Below, piece by piece: positions 5,841 to 54,557 of a stretch of 64,000 bases of DNA (its first letter is position 1; each line of letters starts with the position of its first letter). Location of the stretch: IMG/VR virus record IMGVR_UViG_3300002138_000152. One strand, 5' to 3'. The notes under the pieces are model-generated. The model was not told the DNA's origin. It saw only the letters and a program-made list of their open reading frames with translations, and searched no databases. Origin of the DNA: an uncultured virus (IMG/VR IMGVR_UViG_3300002138_000152). Taxonomy: Duplodnaviria > Heunggongvirae > Uroviricota > Caudoviricetes. The translations under genes and the position numbers were made by a program.

Positions 5841-5890
5841 GTATCAATGATTTTATTTTTATATATAGAATAAAGCTAGTTTTCACTTAC

Positions 5891-6631
5891 ATGATCACAT
5901 CAATAAACGAATTTAAACAATACATCAACGAAACAATAGATGTAAAAGACTCAGCATTTGATAAATTTATTAGGACTAATGCAGATAAATTAGTAAATAG
6001 AACATCTAAATATTTGCCACAAATAAATAAATTATTTGCTGGCTCTGGGTTTATGGTAATAATTGATGATAATAATAGTAAATATAAGTATAAAATTATT
6101 AATGCAGCTGGTGAAACAGTATTATCTTCACGTATGTTTAGAGATTTAATGGAAAAAATTAGAGATCTTGCTCGTCCTTATGCAACATTAAAACAATCAC
6201 ATACTAAAGAAACACCTACAGTATTAAATAATAACGGAACAACAAAAGTATCTGTAACAAAAACACCAGTATTAAATACAGAAATTATGTCTCTTGAAGA
6301 TCTTAGTAATAATTTAGAAAATAAAAGTTATAAGTCTGGTCGTTTTGACATTGATTTTGATATACAAAAAACTGGTGATAATATTAGATTATTAATTGCT
6401 GCACATGGTAAACGCGGTTATCCTAGAGAAGCATATTTAAAAGCACTTAGCACACCATTACCAACATTACCAAATGGCTATGAATATGTCGATCGTAAAC
6501 CAAAAGATTATACAGGTAATATTATGACTCCAACGTCAATAAAATCTGATGATGATAATTATGATGATCGTGGTTATATCGATTCAGAATTTTCTGGTGT
6601 AGTCTATTACAATGTACAAAAAACATCATAA
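5891..6631 (+). CDS. hypothetical protein, possibly virion internal protein
   Basis: MITSINEFKQYINE N-terminus resembling leaders of T4-like internal head proteins; shares TATATATA box (5860-5867). Confidence 0.55.
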   Translation: MITSINEFKQYINETIDVKDSAFDKFIRTNADKLVNRTSKYLPQINKLFAGSGFMVIIDDNNSKYKYKIINAAGETVLSSRMFRDLMEKIRDLARPYATLKQSHTKETPTVLNNNGTTKVSVTKTPVLNTEIMSLEDLSNNLENKSYKSGRFDIDFDIQKTGDNIRLLIAAHGKRGYPREAYLKALSTPLPTLPNGYEYVDRKPKDYTGNIMTPTSIKSDDDNYDDRGYIDSEFSGVVYYNVQKTS

Positions 6632-6678
6632 AGTTTTTTATATCAAATAAAAATATTACATTTGAAAAAATTAAAAAA

Positions 6679-7035
6679 ATGATATTTATTATAATCGCAA
6701 TATTTTTAATAATAATATTTACATGTACTATTAACATATACAAAAAAATCAAAATAGTTGATGATAAAATGTGGAGTTATATTGCTACTCCATGTGAAAC
6801 AATATTCAATGTAACTAATTTTAATAATTGGTTTTGTGATCCAAACAATAATGCTGTTTATGCACATAGTGGTATTTATGGTCGCTGTGATAAATTAAGT
6901 ATTGCGCATATTGAAGATTATATGCTTAAATGTTATGGAATAAATGATAAGGATAAAACTTTATGTCATGGTCATTCAAAACAACAACTGATTGATGATT
7001 TTTATCAAGATATTAGAAAAGATTGGTTAAAATAA
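6679..7035 (+). CDS. hypothetical membrane-anchored protein
   Basis: hydrophobic N-terminus; TACATTTG box upstream. Confidence 0.55.
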   Translation: MIFIIIAIFLIIIFTCTINIYKKIKIVDDKMWSYIATPCETIFNVTNFNNWFCDPNNNAVYAHSGIYGRCDKLSIAHIEDYMLKCYGINDKDKTLCHGHSKQQLIDDFYQDIRKDWLK

Positions 7036-7066
7036 AAAAATATTTTTTTATTTGAAAAAATAGTTG

Positions 7067-7104
7067 TACATTTGTCAAACAAAAGAAGAATTAAAACATA
7101 TATA
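7067..7104 (+). promoter_or_regulatory. promoter region of tRNA operon (TACATTTG box and ATATATA box)
   Basis: TACATTTG 7067-7074 fits Bacteroidota TAnnTTTG; ATATATA 7098-7104. Confidence 0.55.
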
Positions 7105-7111
7105 ACGTATA

Positions 7112-7201
7112 ATGAAAACAATTACAAACATATCATCAAGCTCACGCAGCCGACGCTCGTCATCAAGACGTAGTGGATATGTATTGTCTGAGGTTTTCTA
7201 A
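7112..7201 (+). CDS. Ser/Arg-rich attenuator leader peptide MKTITNISSSSRSRRSSSRRSGYVLSEVF
   Basis: 29 codons; codons 8-21 (7133-7174) are all Ser or Arg; too short for the ORF track. Confidence 0.85.
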   Translation: MKTITNISSSSRSRRSSSRRSGYVLSEVF

Positions 7202-7266
7202 CATTATAGAAAAATATTATCTCTTAGGAGATGTTAAAACCTCAGATATTATCTGAGGCTTTTTTT
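7186..7266 (+). promoter_or_regulatory. attenuator: antiterminator versus intrinsic terminator
   Basis: TCTGAGGTTTT (7187-7197) complements AAAACCTCAGA (7236-7246); competing terminator CCTCAGAT-ATT-ATCTGAGG (7240-7258) followed by C and T7. Confidence 0.85.
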
Positions 7267-7281
7267 ATTTAATAAAATTAT

Positions 7282-7371
7282 GGAAGATGAATCAGTCCGG
7301 CGACTGACCCTGTCTTGAAAACAGTGGGTTCCTCAGAGATGGGGGATTGGGATCGACACCTACTTCTTCCT
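7282..7371 (+). tRNA. tRNA-Ser(TGA)
   Basis: GGAAGA/TCTTCC acceptor, CTGT-CTTGAAA-ACAG anticodon arm, long variable arm; T-loop slightly atypical (ATCGACA). Confidence 0.85.
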
Positions 7372-7403
7372 CATTGACTTTTTAGTGAAACAAATATAAA
7401 AAT

Positions 7404-7488
7404 AGAGAGTAAACTTGAATGGCTCAAGGCTCGCCTGCTAAGCGATGCGTACCCGAAAGGGTATTTGGTTCGACTCCAATTCTCTCTA
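7404..7488 (+). tRNA. tRNA-Ser(GCT)
   Basis: AGAGAG/CTCTCT acceptor, TCGC-CTGCTAA-GCGA, long variable arm, TTCGACT T-loop. Confidence 0.9.
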
Positions 7489-7494
7489 CTTAAT

Positions 7495-7565
7495 GCCTGC
7501 TTAGTGTAATGGAAGCACATGTGGATTCTACCCACAGAGTGAGGGTTCAAGTCCTTCAGCGGGTA
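7495..7565 (+). tRNA. tRNA-Arg(TCT)
   Basis: GCCTGCT/AGCGGGT, TGTGG-ATTCTAC-CCACA, GAGGG-TTCAAGT-CCTTC. Confidence 0.9.
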
Positions 7566-7572
7566 CTAAAAT

Positions 7573-7647
7573 GCGCTTGTAGTTTAATTGGAAAAATACT
7601 CGGCTACGAACCGAGAGACGTGACGGGTTCGACTCCCTCCAGGCGTA
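7573..7647 (+). tRNA. tRNA-Arg(ACG)
   Basis: GCGCTTG/CAGGCGT, CTCGG-CTACGAA-CCGAG, TTCGACT T-loop. Confidence 0.9.
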
Positions 7648-7652
7648 CTTAA

Positions 7653-7724
7653 GTTTCTGTAGTTCAACGGATAGAATGACCGGTTTCGGCCCGGTTGATG
7701 TGGGTTCAAATCCCGCCAGGAACT
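7653..7724 (+). tRNA. tRNA-Arg(TCG)
   Basis: GTTTCTG/CAGGAAC, ACCGG-TTTCGGC-CCGGT, GTGGG-TTCAAAT-CCCGC. Confidence 0.9.
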
Positions 7725-7726
7725 CT

Positions 7727-8272
7727 TTAAATAGTTGTATTCGATTCAGACTGGTCGTTGAGTTCTTGATTCAAATTATAATCCTTGATCTCATCGACCT
7801 TTGCCGGTCTTAAGTCTGTACCTTCTGTATTCACATTAGCAGCGACAATCGTATCAGTTGCTGGTTGTGTGGTTCCTGTATTAACATTCTCAGTTGGATC
7901 CAATTCATTAGTCTGACGAGGTTCAGAGAAGTTCACATTACCAATATCAGAAGGAACTGTGTATGTGTAAACATCCATCGGTACGTAATCAAGTGTTACA
8001 GGTTTTTCAATAGCTGCTGGTGCATTATTAACTTTCTTTAATGATTGTGCAGTAACTATTGGTTTATTATCTGTTTTATCATAAACATTACCACCAAGTA
8101 ATGGTTTAACTACTGGTGTAATATTATTTATATTTCCAAGATGCTTATTATTTTCATTTGGTGTTGTAGGACCATTAATATTTCCCAACGGCTTATTAAA
8201 CGTTGAAAGATTTACTAACTGTAAATCTTCTTTGTATACATTTGTTACTGATTTTACCTGTCGCTTAGCCAT
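7727..8272 (-). CDS. hypothetical low-complexity protein
   Basis: 181-aa Asn/Thr/Pro-rich ORF coupled to upstream gene. Confidence 0.6.
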   Translation of the reverse strand: MAKRQVKSVTNVYKEDLQLVNLSTFNKPLGNINGPTTPNENNKHLGNINNITPVVKPLLGGNVYDKTDNKPIVTAQSLKKVNNAPAAIEKPVTLDYVPMDVYTYTVPSDIGNVNFSEPRQTNELDPTENVNTGTTQPATDTIVAANVNTEGTDLRPAKVDEIKDYNLNQELNDQSESNTTI

Positions 8273-9126
8273 TATACAATCTCTTCATTATTTTCAATAT
8301 CACCTAATACCATGAGTTGATTTTGAAACCATTCAGAACATTCAGATGTAATTCGTGTTTTATTTAACGTATAGAAGTCTTTGATGTAACGTTTGATAAT
8401 CTCACCTGAAACATTCAAACATTTTTTACGTTGACCATTCATTGAATCGATCATGATTATATCTGTTTCATTATCAGTAGGATAATCAAGCATAGCAAAG
8501 AAATTGTTTTTGAATTCTAAATCGTTAACTGTATCATCATCAGTAAGAGCTTCTGAAACTTTTGATTTAGAAAGATCTAAGATAGGATTTTTTACAATTG
8601 GTGTTCCTTTGTGTGTTTTTATTTTCTTACGTTGTTTAATGCGTTCTTTAGGCAGAATTTCAAGTCCAATTGCATTAGCTGGAAGTTTCTTTTGTACTTT
8701 CATTTTTGTAGCTGATATGTCACCAGAACCAAATGACCCCATCATTCCTGGAGTTGAATTGATACCAGGCATAACAACCGCACCCATTCCTGCAGTATTA
8801 GCTGGTCCTGCAAGTGATGCATCTTCAAAAATTGTGGTAACGTCTTGCTCTTTAGCAATACGATCAACAAGTGAACCGATTGCATTTCTGAGGGTACGCT
8901 CATCAATTTTACATTTTTTTACAAATGAATGTGGTGTAATATCTTTAATAAGGTTTTTTTCAATAGCAATAGTTCTATAGATATACTGCTCAACTTTTGG
9001 ATTCTCTTTATAACGAACACGTACAACGATAATACTATCTTGTACTTCAGTCACATCAAAATACCATTTATTATTGAGAAAAAGTTGATCACCGGGAACC
9101 AATACGTTTGTTTCAGTTGAATTCAT
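8272..9126 (-). CDS. hypothetical protein, possibly virion
   Basis: 284-aa ORF, ATATATA box immediately upstream. Confidence 0.65.
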   Translation of the reverse strand: MNSTETNVLVPGDQLFLNNKWYFDVTEVQDSIIVVRVRYKENPKVEQYIYRTIAIEKNLIKDITPHSFVKKCKIDERTLRNAIGSLVDRIAKEQDVTTIFEDASLAGPANTAGMGAVVMPGINSTPGMMGSFGSGDISATKMKVQKKLPANAIGLEILPKERIKQRKKIKTHKGTPIVKNPILDLSKSKVSEALTDDDTVNDLEFKNNFFAMLDYPTDNETDIIMIDSMNGQRKKCLNVSGEIIKRYIKDFYTLNKTRITSECSEWFQNQLMVLGDIENNEEIV

Positions 9127-9398
9127 GAATTATATATTAAAAATACAAAATATTGCAACCAACGTAACATTATTATCACTATATTTGTATTCTAAATAAT
9201 AAAATATGAATGATATCGTTTACAGTTTACTCGTTGAAGAATTGAAATACTATAAAGGACTTAGTTTTCATCATGAGTCTTATTCATATATTAGAAAAAT
9301 TGAAGCAAAAATCGAAATACTTGAAGATTTAATTTCAAAAGCAGATTCACGTTTAAAAGAAAATCTATAAATTTTATTTTTATTACTATATTTATCAT

Positions 9399-9803
9399 AT
9401 GAAAACAGTTTTTATTTTACGTGCTTGTCCAGGAGCTGGAAAGTCTACACTTGCCGAATCACTTACAGACAATAATCGTTCATCAACAATTTGTTGTGCT
9501 GATGATTACTTTATGCATGGTGACGAATACCGTTTTGATCCGGAAAAAATTGGAGCAGCACATCAATGGTGTCAGAAGATGTTTGATGACGCTACAACTG
9601 AAGGTGTTGAAATTGTAGTAGTAGCAAATACTAATACACATGAACGTGATGTGAATCACTACCGCAATCTTGCAATAGAACGTGGATATATGGTTTTTGT
9701 AACTATCGTTGAAAATTGGCACAATGGTAATGATGTTCATAATGTTCCATCTGAAGTAAAAGACAAAATGCGAAATGCTATTAAACAAAATATAAAACTT
9801 TAA
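9399..9803 (+). CDS. P-loop kinase, AAA_33/polynucleotide-kinase-like
   Basis: ILRACPGAGKST, CADDYF, AHQWCQ, VANTN, HNVP. Confidence 0.85.
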   Translation: MKTVFILRACPGAGKSTLAESLTDNNRSSTICCADDYFMHGDEYRFDPEKIGAAHQWCQKMFDDATTEGVEIVVVANTNTHERDVNHYRNLAIERGYMVFVTIVENWHNGNDVHNVPSEVKDKMRNAIKQNIKL

Positions 9804-10129: not shown

Positions 10130-10522
10130 ATGATTAATAGAGGGACATTAGGTAGTGAGAATCGGTATCCAGTTCTTAGCTATATTTATGATAATTACGA
10201 AAACTGCACACCAAGTATTCAGAAACGAATTTTGAAGTTTGGCAAACTTGTTAACACATCTATTTGTGATCTGAACAATGTATCAGATAAATCATTTCGG
10301 ATGCGTGTGATACAATTGTGTAAGAAAGAAGTGATTCAAATTGCACACGAATTATTTACATCTGATGAGAAAGAGATGTGTAATCGTTTATTAAATTTTA
10401 CACATGCACGATTTGCAAACATCATGCATGACACACGGGTATCACATACAATAGATATTAATAGATTCAAAGCTGAGCAACGCAGAATTTCATTAGAGCA
10501 AAATAAAAAAGAGAATATATAA
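10130..10522 (+). CDS. hypothetical protein
   Basis: ORF, start at first ATG after upstream stop. Confidence 0.55.
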   Translation: MINRGTLGSENRYPVLSYIYDNYENCTPSIQKRILKFGKLVNTSICDLNNVSDKSFRMRVIQLCKKEVIQIAHELFTSDEKEMCNRLLNFTHARFANIMHDTRVSHTIDINRFKAEQRRISLEQNKKENI

Positions 10523-21591: not shown

Positions 21592-21863
21592 GATCAGTGT
21601 AGGAATCGTAGTGGTTAGGCTTAGCCGTTGAAAGAGGTCAGTGACACGATGCAGGACTAATAGGGACTCAAGGTTTAAGTAACGTTGGTGCAAACCAGAT
21701 ACACCGAAGAGAAAACAGAATACCTGTGCTACACAATAAGGTCAGTTGACAGAACCGCATACTAGTTTGGTTTGGGTCAGGATGCAACTTTTAAAGGGAA
21801 CACCGATTCAGTAATGATGATCACCCGATTAAGAAGCCGTCGGTTCGAGTCCGGCACTGATCA
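21592..21863 (+). ncRNA. 272-nt RNA with tRNA-like ends (tmRNA-like topology, non-Ala acceptor)
   Basis: GATCAGT/ACTGATC acceptor, GTCGG-TTCGAGT-CCGGC T-arm, long helix AATCG..GTGGTTA/TGATCAC..CGATT. Confidence 0.7.
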
Positions 21864-21876
21864 CTAATTTTTTACA

Positions 21877-22353
21877 ATGACAAAAGAAATTATTGAAGAA
21901 CAAATAACAGTTATTGACGAGCAGCTTGAAAAATATAAAAATGTCTTAAAAGAGATAGATAATCTTAAAAAATAGAAAACACAACTAAAAAATAAACTTG
22001 AGTTATTAAAACCAATACAAATTGAGGATTCACTTATTGTATCATTAACTGATGTTGAAGATAATAAAATTGATGCATTAATTACAACTGCTATTAATGG
22101 TAAAATTAGAGATTGGGTTAATTATTATTTTGATGCTGATGATTTAGATGCTGATGATGTAATATATACAACACATATGCTTATTGGATCTAGATTATTT
22201 GTAGTTGATATTAATTATGAAACTGAATGGCTTTCTGAATGGTATTCAGTTGATAGTTCTACTGGTAAGTTTATAAGTAAAAAAGAAATTTTTAATTTCA
22301 CGGTTAACTGGAATAATGATGATATGTTTAATGCTACTTATCCACGACAGTAA
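21877..22353 (+). pseudogene. 158-codon frame with a single in-frame TAG (21973-21975)
   Basis: MTKEIIEEQ...NLKK*KTQLKNKLE...ATYPRQ, otherwise open. Confidence 0.65.
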
Positions 22354-22476
22354 TTAAATTTAGATATTATTTATTGTGTATTAAGCAGTTTAAAAATAAA
22401 TCAAAAATATTTTCATAAAATAACGTTTGATTTAAAAATAATGTGTATATTTGTATCACAATCAAACGAGATTGTA

Positions 22477-22551
22477 GATAAGGTAGTTTAAGATAAAACA
22501 TCCATAGAAGCTTTAACGCAGGATTTAAAGGTGCAAGTCCTTTTCTTATTA
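22477..22551 (+). ncRNA. degenerate tRNA-like element with expanded anticodon loop
   Basis: GATAAGG/TCTTATT, GTTT..AAAC D-arm, AAAGG-TGCAAGT-CCTTT; TATATTTG box at 22446. Confidence 0.5.
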
Positions 22552-22657
22552 CATATAAGTTCTTTGAAACTTGACTAGAGACGGCAGAGTAGAGTAATTA
22601 TGTTGGTAATAAGACTTCATAATGAAATGAATTGTCGTTTCTCAGTTCTAAAAAAAT

Positions 22658-22832
22658 GCGTAACTAAAAGACAGGTAGTTAGTAAACTAGATAAAAATTT
22701 TCGAAGCGATCGATAGAAGCACAATATATTCTAGTATGAAAGCAAACAATGGTTGTGTATCCTGCGCCGAAACATTGATGGAGAATTCTAAGTCAATGTG
22801 GAATTAAATGGGTTCGAGTCCCTAGTTACGCT
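22658..22832 (+). ncRNA. 175-nt RNA with tRNA-like acceptor stem and T-arm
   Basis: GCGTAACT/AGTTACGC plus GGG-TTCGAGT-CCC. Confidence 0.6.
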
Positions 22833-22927
22833 CAATTTTGCCGCCAAAAGGAGAACCGTGAGTCTGAGGTGTAAAAACTGTACGACGAGCATACGTCATA
22901 CCTTGCGGCGCCAAAACATTAAAAATA

Positions 22928-23008
22928 TTCTTGTGGTGTAATTAGCACGGTCCACTAAGTGGGAGAAGTTTGGGTAGGCGATTAACGCTATTTAAATCCC
23001 AACAAGAG
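22928..23008 (+). ncRNA. degenerate tRNA-like element
   Basis: TTCTTGT/ACAAGAG, GTGT-AATTA-GCAC, TCCAC-TAA-GTGGG, T-arm with inserted hairpin. Confidence 0.45.
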
Positions 23009-23266
23009 CGGTATTCCAGGTTATCAATCTCCTTATGATTGGTTAGTTATGTCGGCACTAAAAGTTCGATCCTTGTTTAAAGTTTTTTATTGGTTAACAA
23101 AAACTACTTTATCTGTTCAATATGCGTGAACAGACGGTTTTATCTTAAACCGTATGCATAGATCGTTTAGTATATTAGCGTCAAAATATACAGACATACT
23201 AAGATATGTAACATCGTTGTCACTATACGCACTATGTAAATGTGTTTAAAAATGATGACGATAAAT

Positions 23267-23352
23267 GCGGAGGTGGCGAAATTGATTAACGTTTACGGAC
23301 AAGTTTTCGTAGATGAAAAAATTCAATGTTGGTTTGAGTCCAACCCTCTGCA
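23267..23352 (+). tRNA. degenerate Leu-like tRNA, anticodon unassignable
   Basis: GCGGAGG/CCTCTGC, GTTGG-TTTGAGT-CCAAC, long variable region, 8-nt anticodon loop. Confidence 0.55.
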
Positions 23353-23359
23353 CTAAAAT

Positions 23360-23430
23360 ACAGGGTTAGTTTAAAGTTAAAACGCGGATCGTTGGGATCC
23401 GAGATGTTGGTTCAATTCCAATACGCTGTA
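23360..23430 (+). tRNA. atypical tRNA, loop CGTTGGG (Gln TTG or Pro-derived)
   Basis: cloverleaf with CGGAT/ATCCG and GTTGG-TTCAATT-CCAAT; G at position 33, one acceptor mismatch. Confidence 0.55.
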
Positions 23431-23493
23431 CAAATATTATTGATTGAACACCAATAAACGCAATGGTGAGACGGTAGTAATACCGTCTCATAC

Positions 23494-43644: not shown

Positions 43645-44805
43645 ATGCCATTAGAAATACAAACATTACTTCGTCTACATGGATTACAACATGTTAAAGA
43701 TTATCTTAAACTTGATGTTAAAGAGAAAGACAATCTTGTTCTTTTGAAATACCGTCAATTAGATGCAGACTGGACTAAAACAGCATTGTATGATTGTCGA
43801 GGTATTATTCTTGATCGCACTAATGCAGACTGGAATATAGTTTCTTTTCCATATAATAAGTTCTTCAACATTGGTGAAGGATATTGTGCTAAGATTGATT
43901 GGGACACTGCAAAATTCTATGAAAAAGCTGATGGATCTTTGATCAATATTTATTTCTACAATGGTATTTGGAATGTACAGACATCCGGAACAATTGATGG
44001 TTTATTTCGAACAAGTGGCGGTGAAATGACTTTTGCTGAACTCTTTTGGTTTTCCGTAAAAGAAATGTATTCATCTGTTGAAAACTTCATTGCTCGTCTT
44101 GACGTAAATAACAATTACATGTTTGAGCTTTGTACTCCTTACAATATTGTTGTTACACAACATAATGATTTTACTGTCAAATTACATGGTGTTCGTAATA
44201 TGCAAACACTTAAGTATGTCGATATCGAAACAATTGATCTTGTACGAGTAAAGACTTACGATTTGAAACATGTGGACGATATGATTGCACAATTCGAAGA
44301 TATGTCTTGGCAAGAAGAAGGTTTCGTTGTATGTGATGCAAACTTCAACCGTGCAAAATGTAAGAACCCAAAATATGTTGCAGTTCATCACGTTGCGACC
44401 GGTGTGAGTCCTTATGCAATCATGAACGTTATCAAGACAAACGAGATTGATGAGTACCTTGTGTATTTCACTGCTCGTGAAGAAGAACTTCGTGAATTGA
44501 TGCGCAAATGGAAAGCAGAAGAAGCTATGCTTACTGAGTTGTATAACAAAGTGTATATTGAGAATCTTAACGTGTATGAAGAAAAATCACGTATTCCACG
44601 TGAAGGTGTTACTGAAACAGATGTTCTACGAAGTGCAGAGCTCAACAAAGAGTTTGCAATGCGTGTTCGTGAACATGTTCCAAAAGTATACCATGGTGTA
44701 ATGTTTGCACTTCGAAACAAATCTATTGCATCTATTCACGAAGGGATGTGTACATTCTCCGATGGATATTGGTTTACCAAATTTAACGGTCCATTGAAAA
44801 AATAA
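43645..44805 (+). CDS. RNA ligase, T4 Rnl1-like
   Basis: CRGIIL, PYNKFFNIGE, EKADGSL (motif I), FEL..NIVV, EEGFVV, KCKNPKY. Confidence 0.9.
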   Translation: MPLEIQTLLRLHGLQHVKDYLKLDVKEKDNLVLLKYRQLDADWTKTALYDCRGIILDRTNADWNIVSFPYNKFFNIGEGYCAKIDWDTAKFYEKADGSLINIYFYNGIWNVQTSGTIDGLFRTSGGEMTFAELFWFSVKEMYSSVENFIARLDVNNNYMFELCTPYNIVVTQHNDFTVKLHGVRNMQTLKYVDIETIDLVRVKTYDLKHVDDMIAQFEDMSWQEEGFVVCDANFNRAKCKNPKYVAVHHVATGVSPYAIMNVIKTNEIDEYLVYFTAREEELRELMRKWKAEEAMLTELYNKVYIENLNVYEEKSRIPREGVTETDVLRSAELNKEFAMRVREHVPKVYHGVMFALRNKSIASIHEGMCTFSDGYWFTKFNGPLKK

Positions 44806-48162: not shown

Positions 48163-48178
48163 AAGTTATATATCAAGT

Positions 48179-53354: not shown

Positions 53355-54557
53355 TTAAACGCCAATCGTTAGGCGTTCTTGTTCAAAGTAAAATTTCTTT
53401 GCAATTTCCGAAATATATTTTGCAACATCTTTAAGTTCAAATCCAGCATCTGAAATTACATCAGATTCTTCTTTTACAACATCATTGATAACTGCTTTAA
53501 GATAATCACCAAGACGTTTGCGATCAAGTAATCCACCGTTAATAATATCAAATGTTTCAGTTAGCATTTGCTCAAGTCTCCAAAATGGTGTCAATTTGTC
53601 AGCAAGATCTATAAGTGTGCGAACTTTTTCATCATCAACTGTATTAAGTGTTTTCGGTTTAGAACCACTTGCGTGTTTCTCACCTTTTGATTTGAAAATG
53701 TAACGTTCACCACGAAACATTCCAGTAAATACAAGACCCTCACCCACAGTACCATCAAGTCCAAAAGTTTTTGATACTGGACATTCATCTTCAACAGCAA
53801 TAGTTTTTTCAATAATTATATTCTGCATGAGTTCTGGATGTGCCATATCAATAAACATTGTAATGGTTGGATAATCAAGAATGTTATAGATTCTACCTTC
53901 ATGTTTTCTTACATTTTCATAATTTAACCATGTAGCAGATTCTTTTGGATCGTCTTCATTTACAACTTTTACACCGAAAATAAAAAAAGCTTTGTTAGAA
54001 ATCTGTGATATACCAACATTTTTTTGAATCCCTGGACCAACCCATTCACCATACATAGCAATTGAATGAGTTGTAAGATCAATATCATTATTTTTTGCAA
54101 GTTGTGTAAGTGATGTAGTAAACCATTCACGTTCACTATTTGCAAAAAATGCAAATCCTGCATTATCTGAAATACCTATTCTTTTTACTGATGATATAAT
54201 ACGGTTTAAAAAAGTATCATCATTTTTTAATTTATCAACACCAAGTCTGATACCATCTTCAATTGTAAATGATCTTTTTGTATCGTTTGTAAATTTTACT
54301 TCAAAGATTTCACTTGATCCTGGTGTAATAATATTTTTTCGTGCTTGAAACCATAATCCATCATTTTCATTGAAACATACACCAGCATTTGTTCCATGTA
54401 ATTTTACAGTTCCAGTAAATTCAATTACTGGCATCTGAATAGATGGATCGTAAGTTGGATCACCATTTACATCAGGCCCAGTATAAGATGCTCTTGATTT
54501 TATTGTGTGAACAATAGATCTAAATTGTTCAATTGATGTAAATGCTATATGTTTCAT
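53355..54557 (-). CDS. RNA ligase, Rnl2-like
   Basis: TVKLHGTNA, DNAGF, YGEWVGPGIQK, GEGLV, FKSKG. Confidence 0.85.
   Translation of the reverse strand: MKHIAFTSIEQFRSIVHTIKSRASYTGPDVNGDPTYDPSIQMPVIEFTGTVKLHGTNAGVCFNENDGLWFQARKNIITPGSSEIFEVKFTNDTKRSFTIEDGIRLGVDKLKNDDTFLNRIISSVKRIGISDNAGFAFFANSEREWFTTSLTQLAKNNDIDLTTHSIAMYGEWVGPGIQKNVGISQISNKAFFIFGVKVVNEDDPKESATWLNYENVRKHEGRIYNILDYPTITMFIDMAHPELMQNIIIEKTIAVEDECPVSKTFGLDGTVGEGLVFTGMFRGERYIFKSKGEKHASGSKPKTLNTVDDEKVRTLIDLADKLTPFWRLEQMLTETFDIINGGLLDRKRLGDYLKAVINDVVKEESDVISDAGFELKDVAKYISEIAKKFYFEQERLTIGV

Follow-up and report, generated by a model that had tools for sequence, protein, structure and literature searches.

Enterobacterial leader-peptide attenuators include thrL (Thr and Ile), ilvL (Ile, Leu and Val), trpL, hisL, pheL and leuL, and a single leader of this kind can sense several amino acids. 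In the trp and his attenuators scarce and uncharged transfer RNA (tRNA) alike stall the ribosome, and in Escherichia coli the pheST attenuator, with its pheM leader, regulates an aminoacyl-tRNA synthetase. Here, we analyzed 64,000 nucleotides (nt) of DNA from an uncultured virus of the Caudoviricetes (IMG/VR record IMGVR_UViG_3300002138_000152; one strand in its entirety, hereafter the window), in which a small open reading frame (ORF) rich in Ser and Arg codons and an intrinsic terminator precede five Ser and Arg tRNA genes. Judged from sequence comparison and modeled RNA folding, this locus probably works as a transcription attenuator of the ribosome-mediated, leader-peptide type that controls entry into an operon of five Ser and Arg tRNA genes; at least five units of this design occur in the same jumbo phage. 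The preliminary description of this DNA knew of no earlier case for a phage tRNA operon, and a search of full-text literature with most subscription journals outside its coverage agrees, as it returned no account of leader-peptide attenuation of tRNA genes; in the huge-phage paper (PMC7162821), neither "attenuat" nor "leader" occurs.

The sensing part of the unit consists of two nested features:

7112..7201, plus strand: leader ORF of 29 codons plus stop, product MKTITNISSSSRSRRSSSRRSGYVLSEVF, from the ORF list.
7133..7174, plus strand: regulatory run of 14 Ser/Arg codons, read from the sequence.

Both the 29-codon leader and its 14 consecutive Ser/Arg codons had been put forward in the preliminary description, and both are confirmed at these positions. 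The codons of the run are, in order, TCA TCA AGC TCA CGC AGC CGA CGC TCG TCA TCA AGA CGT AGT. Ser and Arg together make up 9.4% of residues in long ORFs, which gives 14 in succession a probability of about 4e-15 per position. Genome-wide counts were made on a near-identical IMG/VR contig (G002; 313,708 bp), located by a 26-nt tRNA pattern and 99.9% identical to the window over the locus, with A7239G as the only difference within 7000-7800. Its six frames hold just three Ser/Arg runs of at least eight residues; the leader run is the longest of them and adjoins the sole Ser/Arg tRNA cluster of this 313.7-kb genome.

Directly downstream lie the five tRNA genes:

7282..7372, plus strand: tRNA-Ser(tga), long variable arm, stems of 8 bp (acceptor) and 4 bp (T) (ARAGORN at -ps90, Rfam tRNA-Sec, cloverleaf).
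7404..7489, plus strand: tRNA-Ser(gct), non-canonical and low-scoring (ARAGORN at -ps90 only).
7495..7566, plus strand: tRNA-Arg(tct) (default ARAGORN; Rfam RF00005, 55.6 bits).
7573..7648, plus strand: tRNA-Arg(acg) (default ARAGORN; Rfam RF00005, 49.0 bits).
7653..7725, plus strand: tRNA-Arg(tcg), the final gene of the unit (default ARAGORN; Rfam RF00005, 60.8 bits).

The next gene, at 7727-8272, is on the opposite strand. These are the five genes named in the preliminary description, with the qualification that both Ser genes emerge only at relaxed thresholds. Its further claim, that the tRNAs read every codon of the run and that each has a cognate codon there, also stands, as the five anticodons read 14/14 codons under standard wobble and every tRNA has at least one cognate codon. 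TCT and TCC are missing from the run (P = 0.045 given phage codon usage), and the cluster has no G34 tRNA for these two codons. Codons used at less than 8% within their own family account for 5/14 of the run (P = 0.012).

The best Rfam model for the Ser(tga) gene is tRNA-Sec at 44.7 bits, under the gathering score of 47. The gene is nevertheless real, since five homologues share one consensus fold with compensatory changes at 9/17 pairs. Ser(gct) was missed both by Rfam at E<=1 and by default ARAGORN. An acceptor stem of 8 bp and a T stem of 4 bp characterize the folds of the phage tRNA-Ser genes, which have homologues at L062 1664-1744, L063 1576-1666 and L077 3510-3686; such 8/4 "allo-tRNA" cloverleaves have been described before. 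A further candidate, tRNA-Ser(aga) at 7175-7266 (ARAGORN at -ps80), was rejected: it spans the end of the leader and the terminator, its supposed T arm is the terminator, and the same ARAGORN setting gives other implausible calls.

Between the run and the first tRNA gene lie the elements that would make up the switch:

7108..7134, plus strand: region 1, the 5' strand of a predicted anti-antiterminator helix (7108-7119 and 7124-7134), from minimum free energy (MFE) folds.
7176..7208, plus strand: region 2, the partner of region 1 when ribosome-free, which includes 7187-7197, from MFE folds.
7187..7197, plus strand: antiterminator 5' strand TCTGAGGTTTT, the last leader codons, from complementarity and mask folding.
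7218..7233, plus strand: spacer hairpin of 6 bp with a 4-nt loop between leader stop and terminator, from MFE and centroid folds.
7236..7266, plus strand: terminator with 5' arm 7236/7240-7247, loop 7248-7250, 3' arm 7251-7258 and T-tract 7260-7266, from a consensus scan.

The terminator stem at 7240-7258 has eight pairs (four of them G-C), a 3-nt loop and the tail CTTTTTTT, and is the one terminator-like site that the consensus scan reports on this strand; this bears out the earlier claim of a U-tailed terminator at 7240-7266. The claimed match between leader end and terminator is likewise exact: 7187-7197 (TCTGAGGTTTT) is a perfect 11-nt reverse complement of 7236-7246 (AAAACCTCAGA), so that the 5' arm of the terminator is also the 3' strand of the antiterminator. 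In the near-identical contig this duplex scores z = -5.9 against 200 shuffles. The gap between the T-tract and the first tRNA is 15 nt, which leaves no room for a promoter, and a consensus scan of the gap found no promoter-like match. Short ORF, codon run, gap and predicted alternative helices 1:2, 2:3 and 3:4 together agree with the trp/his-type geometry that the preliminary description had assigned to the locus.

Folding of the 176 nt at 7100-7275 gives an MFE of -41 kcal/mol (z = -4.04), in a structure that pairs 7114-7134 with 7176-7198, hiding the antiterminator strand, and also forms the terminator. With the ribosome modeled as a 28-nt mask around the aminoacyl (A) site, the window copy yields a terminator probability of 0.90 when no ribosome is present. 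Placing the A site at 7133-7148 lowers this to 0.01-0.32 and gives the antiterminator 0.54-0.80; at 7166-7172 the terminator stands at 0.29-0.51, and at 7175 at 0.85 with 0.09 for the antiterminator. From 7178 to the stop the values are 0.97 and 0.00. Folding with and without a masked leader end had been proposed as a check, and in these models it appears to reproduce trp-type logic. Position 7239 is A in the window and G in the near-identical contig and two further contigs; with G the terminator stem reaches 12 bp and one pair of the antiterminator becomes G-U, and natural variants thus tip the competition between the two structures. Contigs from four sequencing runs yielded fragments only, with a few variants at low depth (7134 C>T, 7239 A>G and loop changes). 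No Rfam leader family was matched at its gathering score; the best, Phe_leader (RF01859), reached 23.7 bits against 55 (E = 0.46), and an identity with it was dismissed since the match covers the terminator hairpin only.

We infer from this arrangement that the leader is translated and that its translation is coupled to transcription, and likewise the direction, size and natural trigger of the response. Transcription would start upstream of 7112, and a ribosome would translate the 29-codon leader while RNA polymerase heads toward the terminator. With rapid decoding of Ser and Arg codons, the ribosome would reach the last codons or the stop and cover 7187-7197, the hairpin at 7240-7258 would form, and transcription would end at the T-tract. 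When cognate charged tRNA is scarce, the ribosome would instead stall within 7133-7174, occupying region 1 and leaving 7187-7197 free to pair with 7236-7246; the terminator would then not form and the polymerase would enter the tRNA genes. If there is no translation, region 1 would pair with region 2 and termination would win again. As the products of the operon would relieve the stall, the circuit would form a closed loop of negative feedback, maintaining the capacity to decode the codons that it senses.

To place the locus in its genomic setting, we counted 132 terminator-like sites on both strands of the near-identical contig, five of which have a tRNA within 600 nt on their 3' side. In all five cases a small ORF precedes the terminator, and its residues are enriched for the amino acids that the tRNAs behind the terminator carry:

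Ser/Arg leader: followed by Ser, Ser, Arg, Arg and Arg tRNAs.
Leader MKTIFNIVVAQAVQGQAGRLPSQIILC (start MKTIFNIVVAQAVQGQAG): followed by Val, Val, Gly and Ala tRNAs.
Leader ..STYQQLQQQQFSD: followed by a Gln tRNA.
Leader MKTFNKHNNNNFKFWSNDSGSEELI (start MKTFNKHNNNNFKFW): followed by Trp, Phe, Asn, Pro, His and Lys tRNAs.
Leader MKNLITLTIITLCTLMCNGLVVS (start MKNLITLTIITLCTLMC): followed by a Leu/Ile/Thr/Cys/Met cluster.

In the last of these units, the motif TATATTTG and a 76-codon ORF lie between the terminator and the first tRNA (149806-150216 of the contig; L034 2807-3217), an insertion that may uncouple the block from its attenuator. A sixth candidate, MKTHWYHLKNSYVII near 111968, was discarded: it overlaps the end of a coding region, its terminator precedes an opposite-strand ORF, and it has no tRNA.

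Codon-matched leaders at other phage tRNA clusters, which the preliminary description had proposed as a check, were found in the same phage and in five related records, for a total of 32 scored units. A neighboring protein with 38-40% identity led to a complete 391-kb and a 67-kb IMG/VR contig with orthologous leaders, and a metagenome scan with an alignment of this protein matched only these two contigs. The same design occurs in G003, G004, LR756501.1, LR756502.1 and LR756504.1, distant relatives (37-40% identity in the neighboring protein and the helicase) that comprise the 391-kb and 67-kb contigs and uncultured huge phages of 735, 642 and 636 kb. The huge phages have tRNA blocks assembled differently from those of the near-identical contig, and their leaders follow the content of the block. 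In addition to the orthologous units, the relatives contain the following:

Leader MKTTVNTYYWYYYKLFK, 391-kb and 67-kb contigs: an added Tyr unit, followed by Tyr and Tyr tRNAs.
Leader MKAMILSLCLSLSLSL.., huge phage: followed by Leu, Leu, Ser, Cys, Ser, Ser, Leu and Leu tRNAs.
Leader MKTIAMIIRMRIIRPKMLG (start MKTIAMIIRMRIIR), huge phage: followed by Arg, Ile and Met tRNAs.
Leader MKTKKQQYKQYQPQYK.., huge phage: followed by Tyr, Tyr and Gln tRNAs and four Lys tRNAs.
Leader ..KHSKHFSSSSKWF.., huge phage: followed by Trp, His, His, Phe, Lys and Ser tRNAs.
Leader ..TPAPAVAFRRGTGTGTGTCVPAG.., huge phage: followed by an Arg/Ala/Thr/Val/Gly/Pro block.

Some attenuators stand in series, with a second leader and terminator within the tRNA cluster (L059 reverse complement 1442-2475; L080 659-2071; L086 reverse complement 1608-2056), as in a Val/Ala/Gly cluster that continues into a Gln leader with its Gln tRNAs; in such units the upstream leader also holds codons for tRNAs beyond the second gate.

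All units contain a complete reading frame from ATG to stop, and most share an N-terminal MK(T/N) spacer; that of MKTITNISSSSRSRRSSSRRSGYVLSEVF, MK(T/N)..N(I), is common to other leaders. These features bear on whether the run is read by a ribosome at all. The leader triplets complement the anticodons of the tRNAs encoded behind them, and a translation-independent RNA sensor that pairs directly with tRNAs, in the manner of a T-box, would exploit just this complementarity. We consider such a sensor highly improbable, given the conserved ORF structure and an Rfam scan of 6500-8500 in which no T-box or other riboswitch family was matched at E<=1. Moreover, the codons of Ser fall into two unrelated boxes, as do those of Arg, so that only in-frame reading of amino acids unifies the run. 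It is still more improbable that the small ORFs encode functional micropeptides to which the tRNA neighborhood is incidental: some leaders look hydrophobic or signal-like (e.g., MKNLITLTIITLCTLMC..), but the peptides are unrelated between units save for the N-terminus, and it is the match to the tRNAs that is conserved, not the peptide.

The distance from terminator to tRNA is at most 25 nt in 15/26 sites. At these sites the hairpin sits 8-25 nt 5' of the first tRNA, where 5' processing occurs, and the position of the ribosome on the leader could conceivably control processing or stability of the precursor, by making the 5' flank of the first tRNA more or less accessible to nucleases, instead of controlling termination. 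This seems very improbable to us, as each hairpin is followed by a T-tract of the intrinsic-terminator type, for which a processing signal would have no need.

The association between leaders and tRNA blocks, on which the attenuator interpretation leans most, was scored as the share of residues in a leader for which a tRNA of the same amino acid lies downstream. Automatic detection gave 26 terminator-to-tRNA sites, of which one without an ORF was dropped; the Gln ORF of G003 was added by hand, and 25 units were scored, two apparent non-leaders being retained in the test, before seven further units from LR756504.1 brought the number to 32. Across these 32 units leader composition covaries with tRNA content. 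In all five records with at least four units (5/5), the true pairing of leaders and blocks is the unique best permutation, ranking 1/120 in G002, 1/5,040 in G003, 1/24 in LR756501, 1/40,320 in LR756502 and 1/5,040 in LR756504. For the pooled 25 units the mean match is 0.391 versus 0.163 in shuffled pairings (maximum 0.321), and 0/100,000 shuffles reach 0.391. Orthologous units across phages are not independent origins, and the informative comparisons are those between different units of one genome and between differently composed blocks of different genomes.

The pairing elements were compared in the same manner. Antiterminator complementarity beats dinucleotide shuffles (p<=0.05) in 14/25 units, with a mean z of -2.4, and in most units the best duplex between leader end and 5' arm falls within the last ~35 nt of the ORF. 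Among homologous Ser/Arg units the complementary cores differ (CTGAGG/CCTCAG, GCCTGG/CCAGGC and CCTGGA/TCCAGG), and in an alignment of four such units the terminators are out of register. In folds that end at the terminator loop, a ribosome within the run leaves the 5' arm paired to upstream sequence, and the arm is released as the ribosome nears the stop; a fold stopping before the 3' arm of the terminator, with no ribosome, still leaves the 5' arm paired upstream in most units. The zone of ribosome positions with this pairing holds 212/258 block-cognate codons versus 225/413 other codons (odds ratio 3.85, p = 7e-14). Collectively, this is strong comparative evidence that supports the attenuator interpretation, from which regulation in vivo would be expected.

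Signals that could drive expression of the leader were sought upstream of it:

7067..7074, plus strand: candidate promoter TACATTTG, a motif match to TAnnTTTG.
7098..7105, plus strand: upstream motif ATATATAA, common to protein-coding genes of the phage, from a motif scan.

TAnnTTTG, which we take to be the -7 promoter motif of Bacteroidota, occurs upstream of several longer ORFs in the window, and the same motif (TATATTTG) lies 35-55 nt 5' of the other leaders in the near-identical contig. Its count in the window is not above chance (108 found versus 106 expected), so that the promoter at 7067..7074 is a putative one and its position relative to starts is suggestive only. ATATATA(A/C) likewise is not enriched by count, with 11 matches in the window versus 15 expected, most of them 3-22 nt 5' of ORF starts and in the correct orientation (other sites include 5859-5866 and 9130-9137, both on the minus strand, 10515-10522, and 48166-48173 on the minus strand). 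In related phages a motif of the ATATATA(A/C/G) type precedes 16/25 leaders. The ATATATAA motif may be a promoter or a translation signal; at a 3-nt spacing, a -10-type promoter at ATATATA(A/C) would yield leaderless mRNAs. The leader has no Shine-Dalgarno sequence, nor has any of the 87 longer ORFs in the window (0/87), and its absence here is therefore normal for this phage.

Several observations weigh against the attenuator interpretation. If ATATATAA is a promoter, the transcript may start at or after the leader ATG. The Ser(gct) gene is a weak tRNA call, and a sigma-70-like match lies at 7374-7403, between the two Ser genes, in a scan where such matches occur at chance frequency (15 found versus 16.8 expected). 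Mask folding of the window copy leaves the terminator at ~0.9 with the A site at 7151-7163, within the run. Of the ARAGORN tRNA calls in the near-identical contig, 10/37 have no detected leader, including the tRNA-Gln at 23360 of the window; two weak tRNA matches among these leaderless calls sit directly behind a TATATTTG motif. The match between leaders and tRNAs is at the level of the amino acid: over all units 219/247 codons are readable versus 206.5 expected from usage, an excess so slight that leaders evidently follow the identity of the tRNAs and not their precise anticodons, with a tendency to mix several synonymous codons. The antiterminator fails to beat shuffles at p<=0.05 in 11/25 units. 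Finally, equilibrium folding of the full-length RNA favors the terminator in most units wherever the ribosome is placed, and the Ser/Arg copy with 7239G is among them; the switch must therefore be kinetic, with the antiterminator forming first, as in classical attenuators.

These last two points are those expected if the terminator were instead an invariant but leaky insulator against transcription from upstream, with the tRNAs arising from constitutive read-through or processing and the small ORF being translated yet controlling nothing. Such an insulator is improbable in our view, since it leaves unexplained why leader composition tracks tRNA content in every genome, why block-cognate codons are placed where a stalled ribosome preserves the antiterminator, and why the window unit has a perfect 11-nt complement.

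What would set off an attenuator of this kind is a separate matter. Host tRNA loss to defense nucleases, loss in host shut-off, codon demand of the phage and amino-acid starvation could each act as the trigger; the preliminary description had proposed starvation or tRNA cleavage by host anticodon nucleases. The architecture is blind to the difference between scarce and uncharged tRNA, both of which stall the ribosome, and the same mechanism might thus report amino-acid starvation or a general slowing of translation, through uncharged tRNA, and not tRNA loss to host defense or shut-off. We regard starvation as a doubtful signal, as the products of the operon are tRNAs and extra tRNA presumably cannot cure an amino-acid shortage, and as the repair genes of the phage appear to point to tRNA damage as the pressure. 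These genes match PHROGs families for a polynucleotide-kinase-like ATPase, an Rnl1-type RNA ligase and a second RNA ligase (window 9399-9803, 43645-44805 and 53355-54557) and make tRNA damage a plausible selective pressure on the phage; taken together, the ATPase and the two ligases resemble a tRNA repair kit of the T4 kind.

On the scale of the genome, we lean slightly toward a modular tRNA homeostat, in which nearly every block is gated by a leader of its own residues, all leaders derive from one ancestral attenuator and were re-coded upon reshuffling of the blocks, and a block is made when its codons slow ribosomes, for example when host tRNAs are cut by defense nucleases or lost in shut-off, and silenced by its own products. 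The shared MK(T/N)..N spacer is our ground for a single ancestral attenuator.

The window has a G+C content of 32% and is part of a jumbo phage genome of ~314 kb whose expression signals are of the Bacteroidota type. Its helicase is 36-40% identical to helicases of four uncultured phages of 635-735 kb. Al-Shayeb et al. 2020 (PMC7162821) assign the four largest of their huge-phage genomes to the Mahaphage clade and predict replication in Bacteroidetes. A blastn comparison of 6600-7800 with GenBank phages gave two short matches, one on annotated tRNA genes and one unannotated.

Two further observations concern tRNA genes elsewhere. In the window, ~1.7 kb at 21600-23360, upstream of the tRNA-Gln at 23360-23431, are mostly non-coding and more G+C-rich, with one 32-codon and one 58-codon ORF, tRNA-like 3' halves and weak tRNA matches at 22477-22551 (34.9 bits) and 23267-23352 (34 bits); no leader, terminator or other Rfam family was matched in this interval. 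In the 735-kb genome LR756501.1, two adjacent tRNAs with CTA anticodons (L076 886-1039), labeled "Pyl" by ARAGORN, read amber and hint at the use of TAG as a sense codon at some stage.

Taken together, the sequences suggest that attenuators gate most tRNA blocks in a group of jumbo and huge phages, a known kind of regulation applied to tRNA genes. While phage tRNA genes are usually treated as constitutive supplements, the design described here points to block-by-block control by the ribosome with feedback relieved by the product, and it makes testable why and when giant phages use their dozens of tRNAs, as each leader predicts the shortage that its block answers. It also connects to tRNA-targeting defenses and phage counter-measures, the same phage having RNA ligases and a kinase-like ATPase; if the homeostat exists, these phages would gauge how fast each codon family is decoded and respond to tRNA-targeting immunity as the need arises. 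Furthermore, the design implies coupling of transcription and translation during infection of Bacteroidota-type hosts, with initiation that does not use Shine-Dalgarno sequences. In annotation, the small ORFs would be corrected from hypothetical proteins to regulatory leaders, which may serve engineering as ready-made codon-specific sensors, and the covariation of leaders with tRNAs across differently composed blocks amounts to a natural mutagenesis series that few regulatory elements offer.

Compared with described systems, the phage units resemble the enterobacterial leader attenuators in their short ORF with a regulatory run, their predicted, mutually exclusive 1:2, 2:3 and 3:4 helices, their intrinsic terminator and a decision that would be made by ribosome position. 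They differ in regulating tRNAs rather than biosynthetic enzymes, such that the product would act directly on the sensor, in carrying up to seven amino acids per leader, in forming a paralogous set of 4-8 scored units per record that covers most of the tRNA repertoire, and in having Bacteroidota-type signals, no Shine-Dalgarno sequence and no match to an Rfam leader family. With pheST they share leader-peptide attenuation of a component of translation that senses cognate charged tRNA, although pheST is a cellular system that acts on a synthetase and responds to a single amino acid. Similarly to T-box riboswitches, they would sense the state of specific tRNAs and set a terminator against an antiterminator ahead of translation-related genes, whereas a T-box binds the tRNA directly and needs neither ribosome nor ORF.

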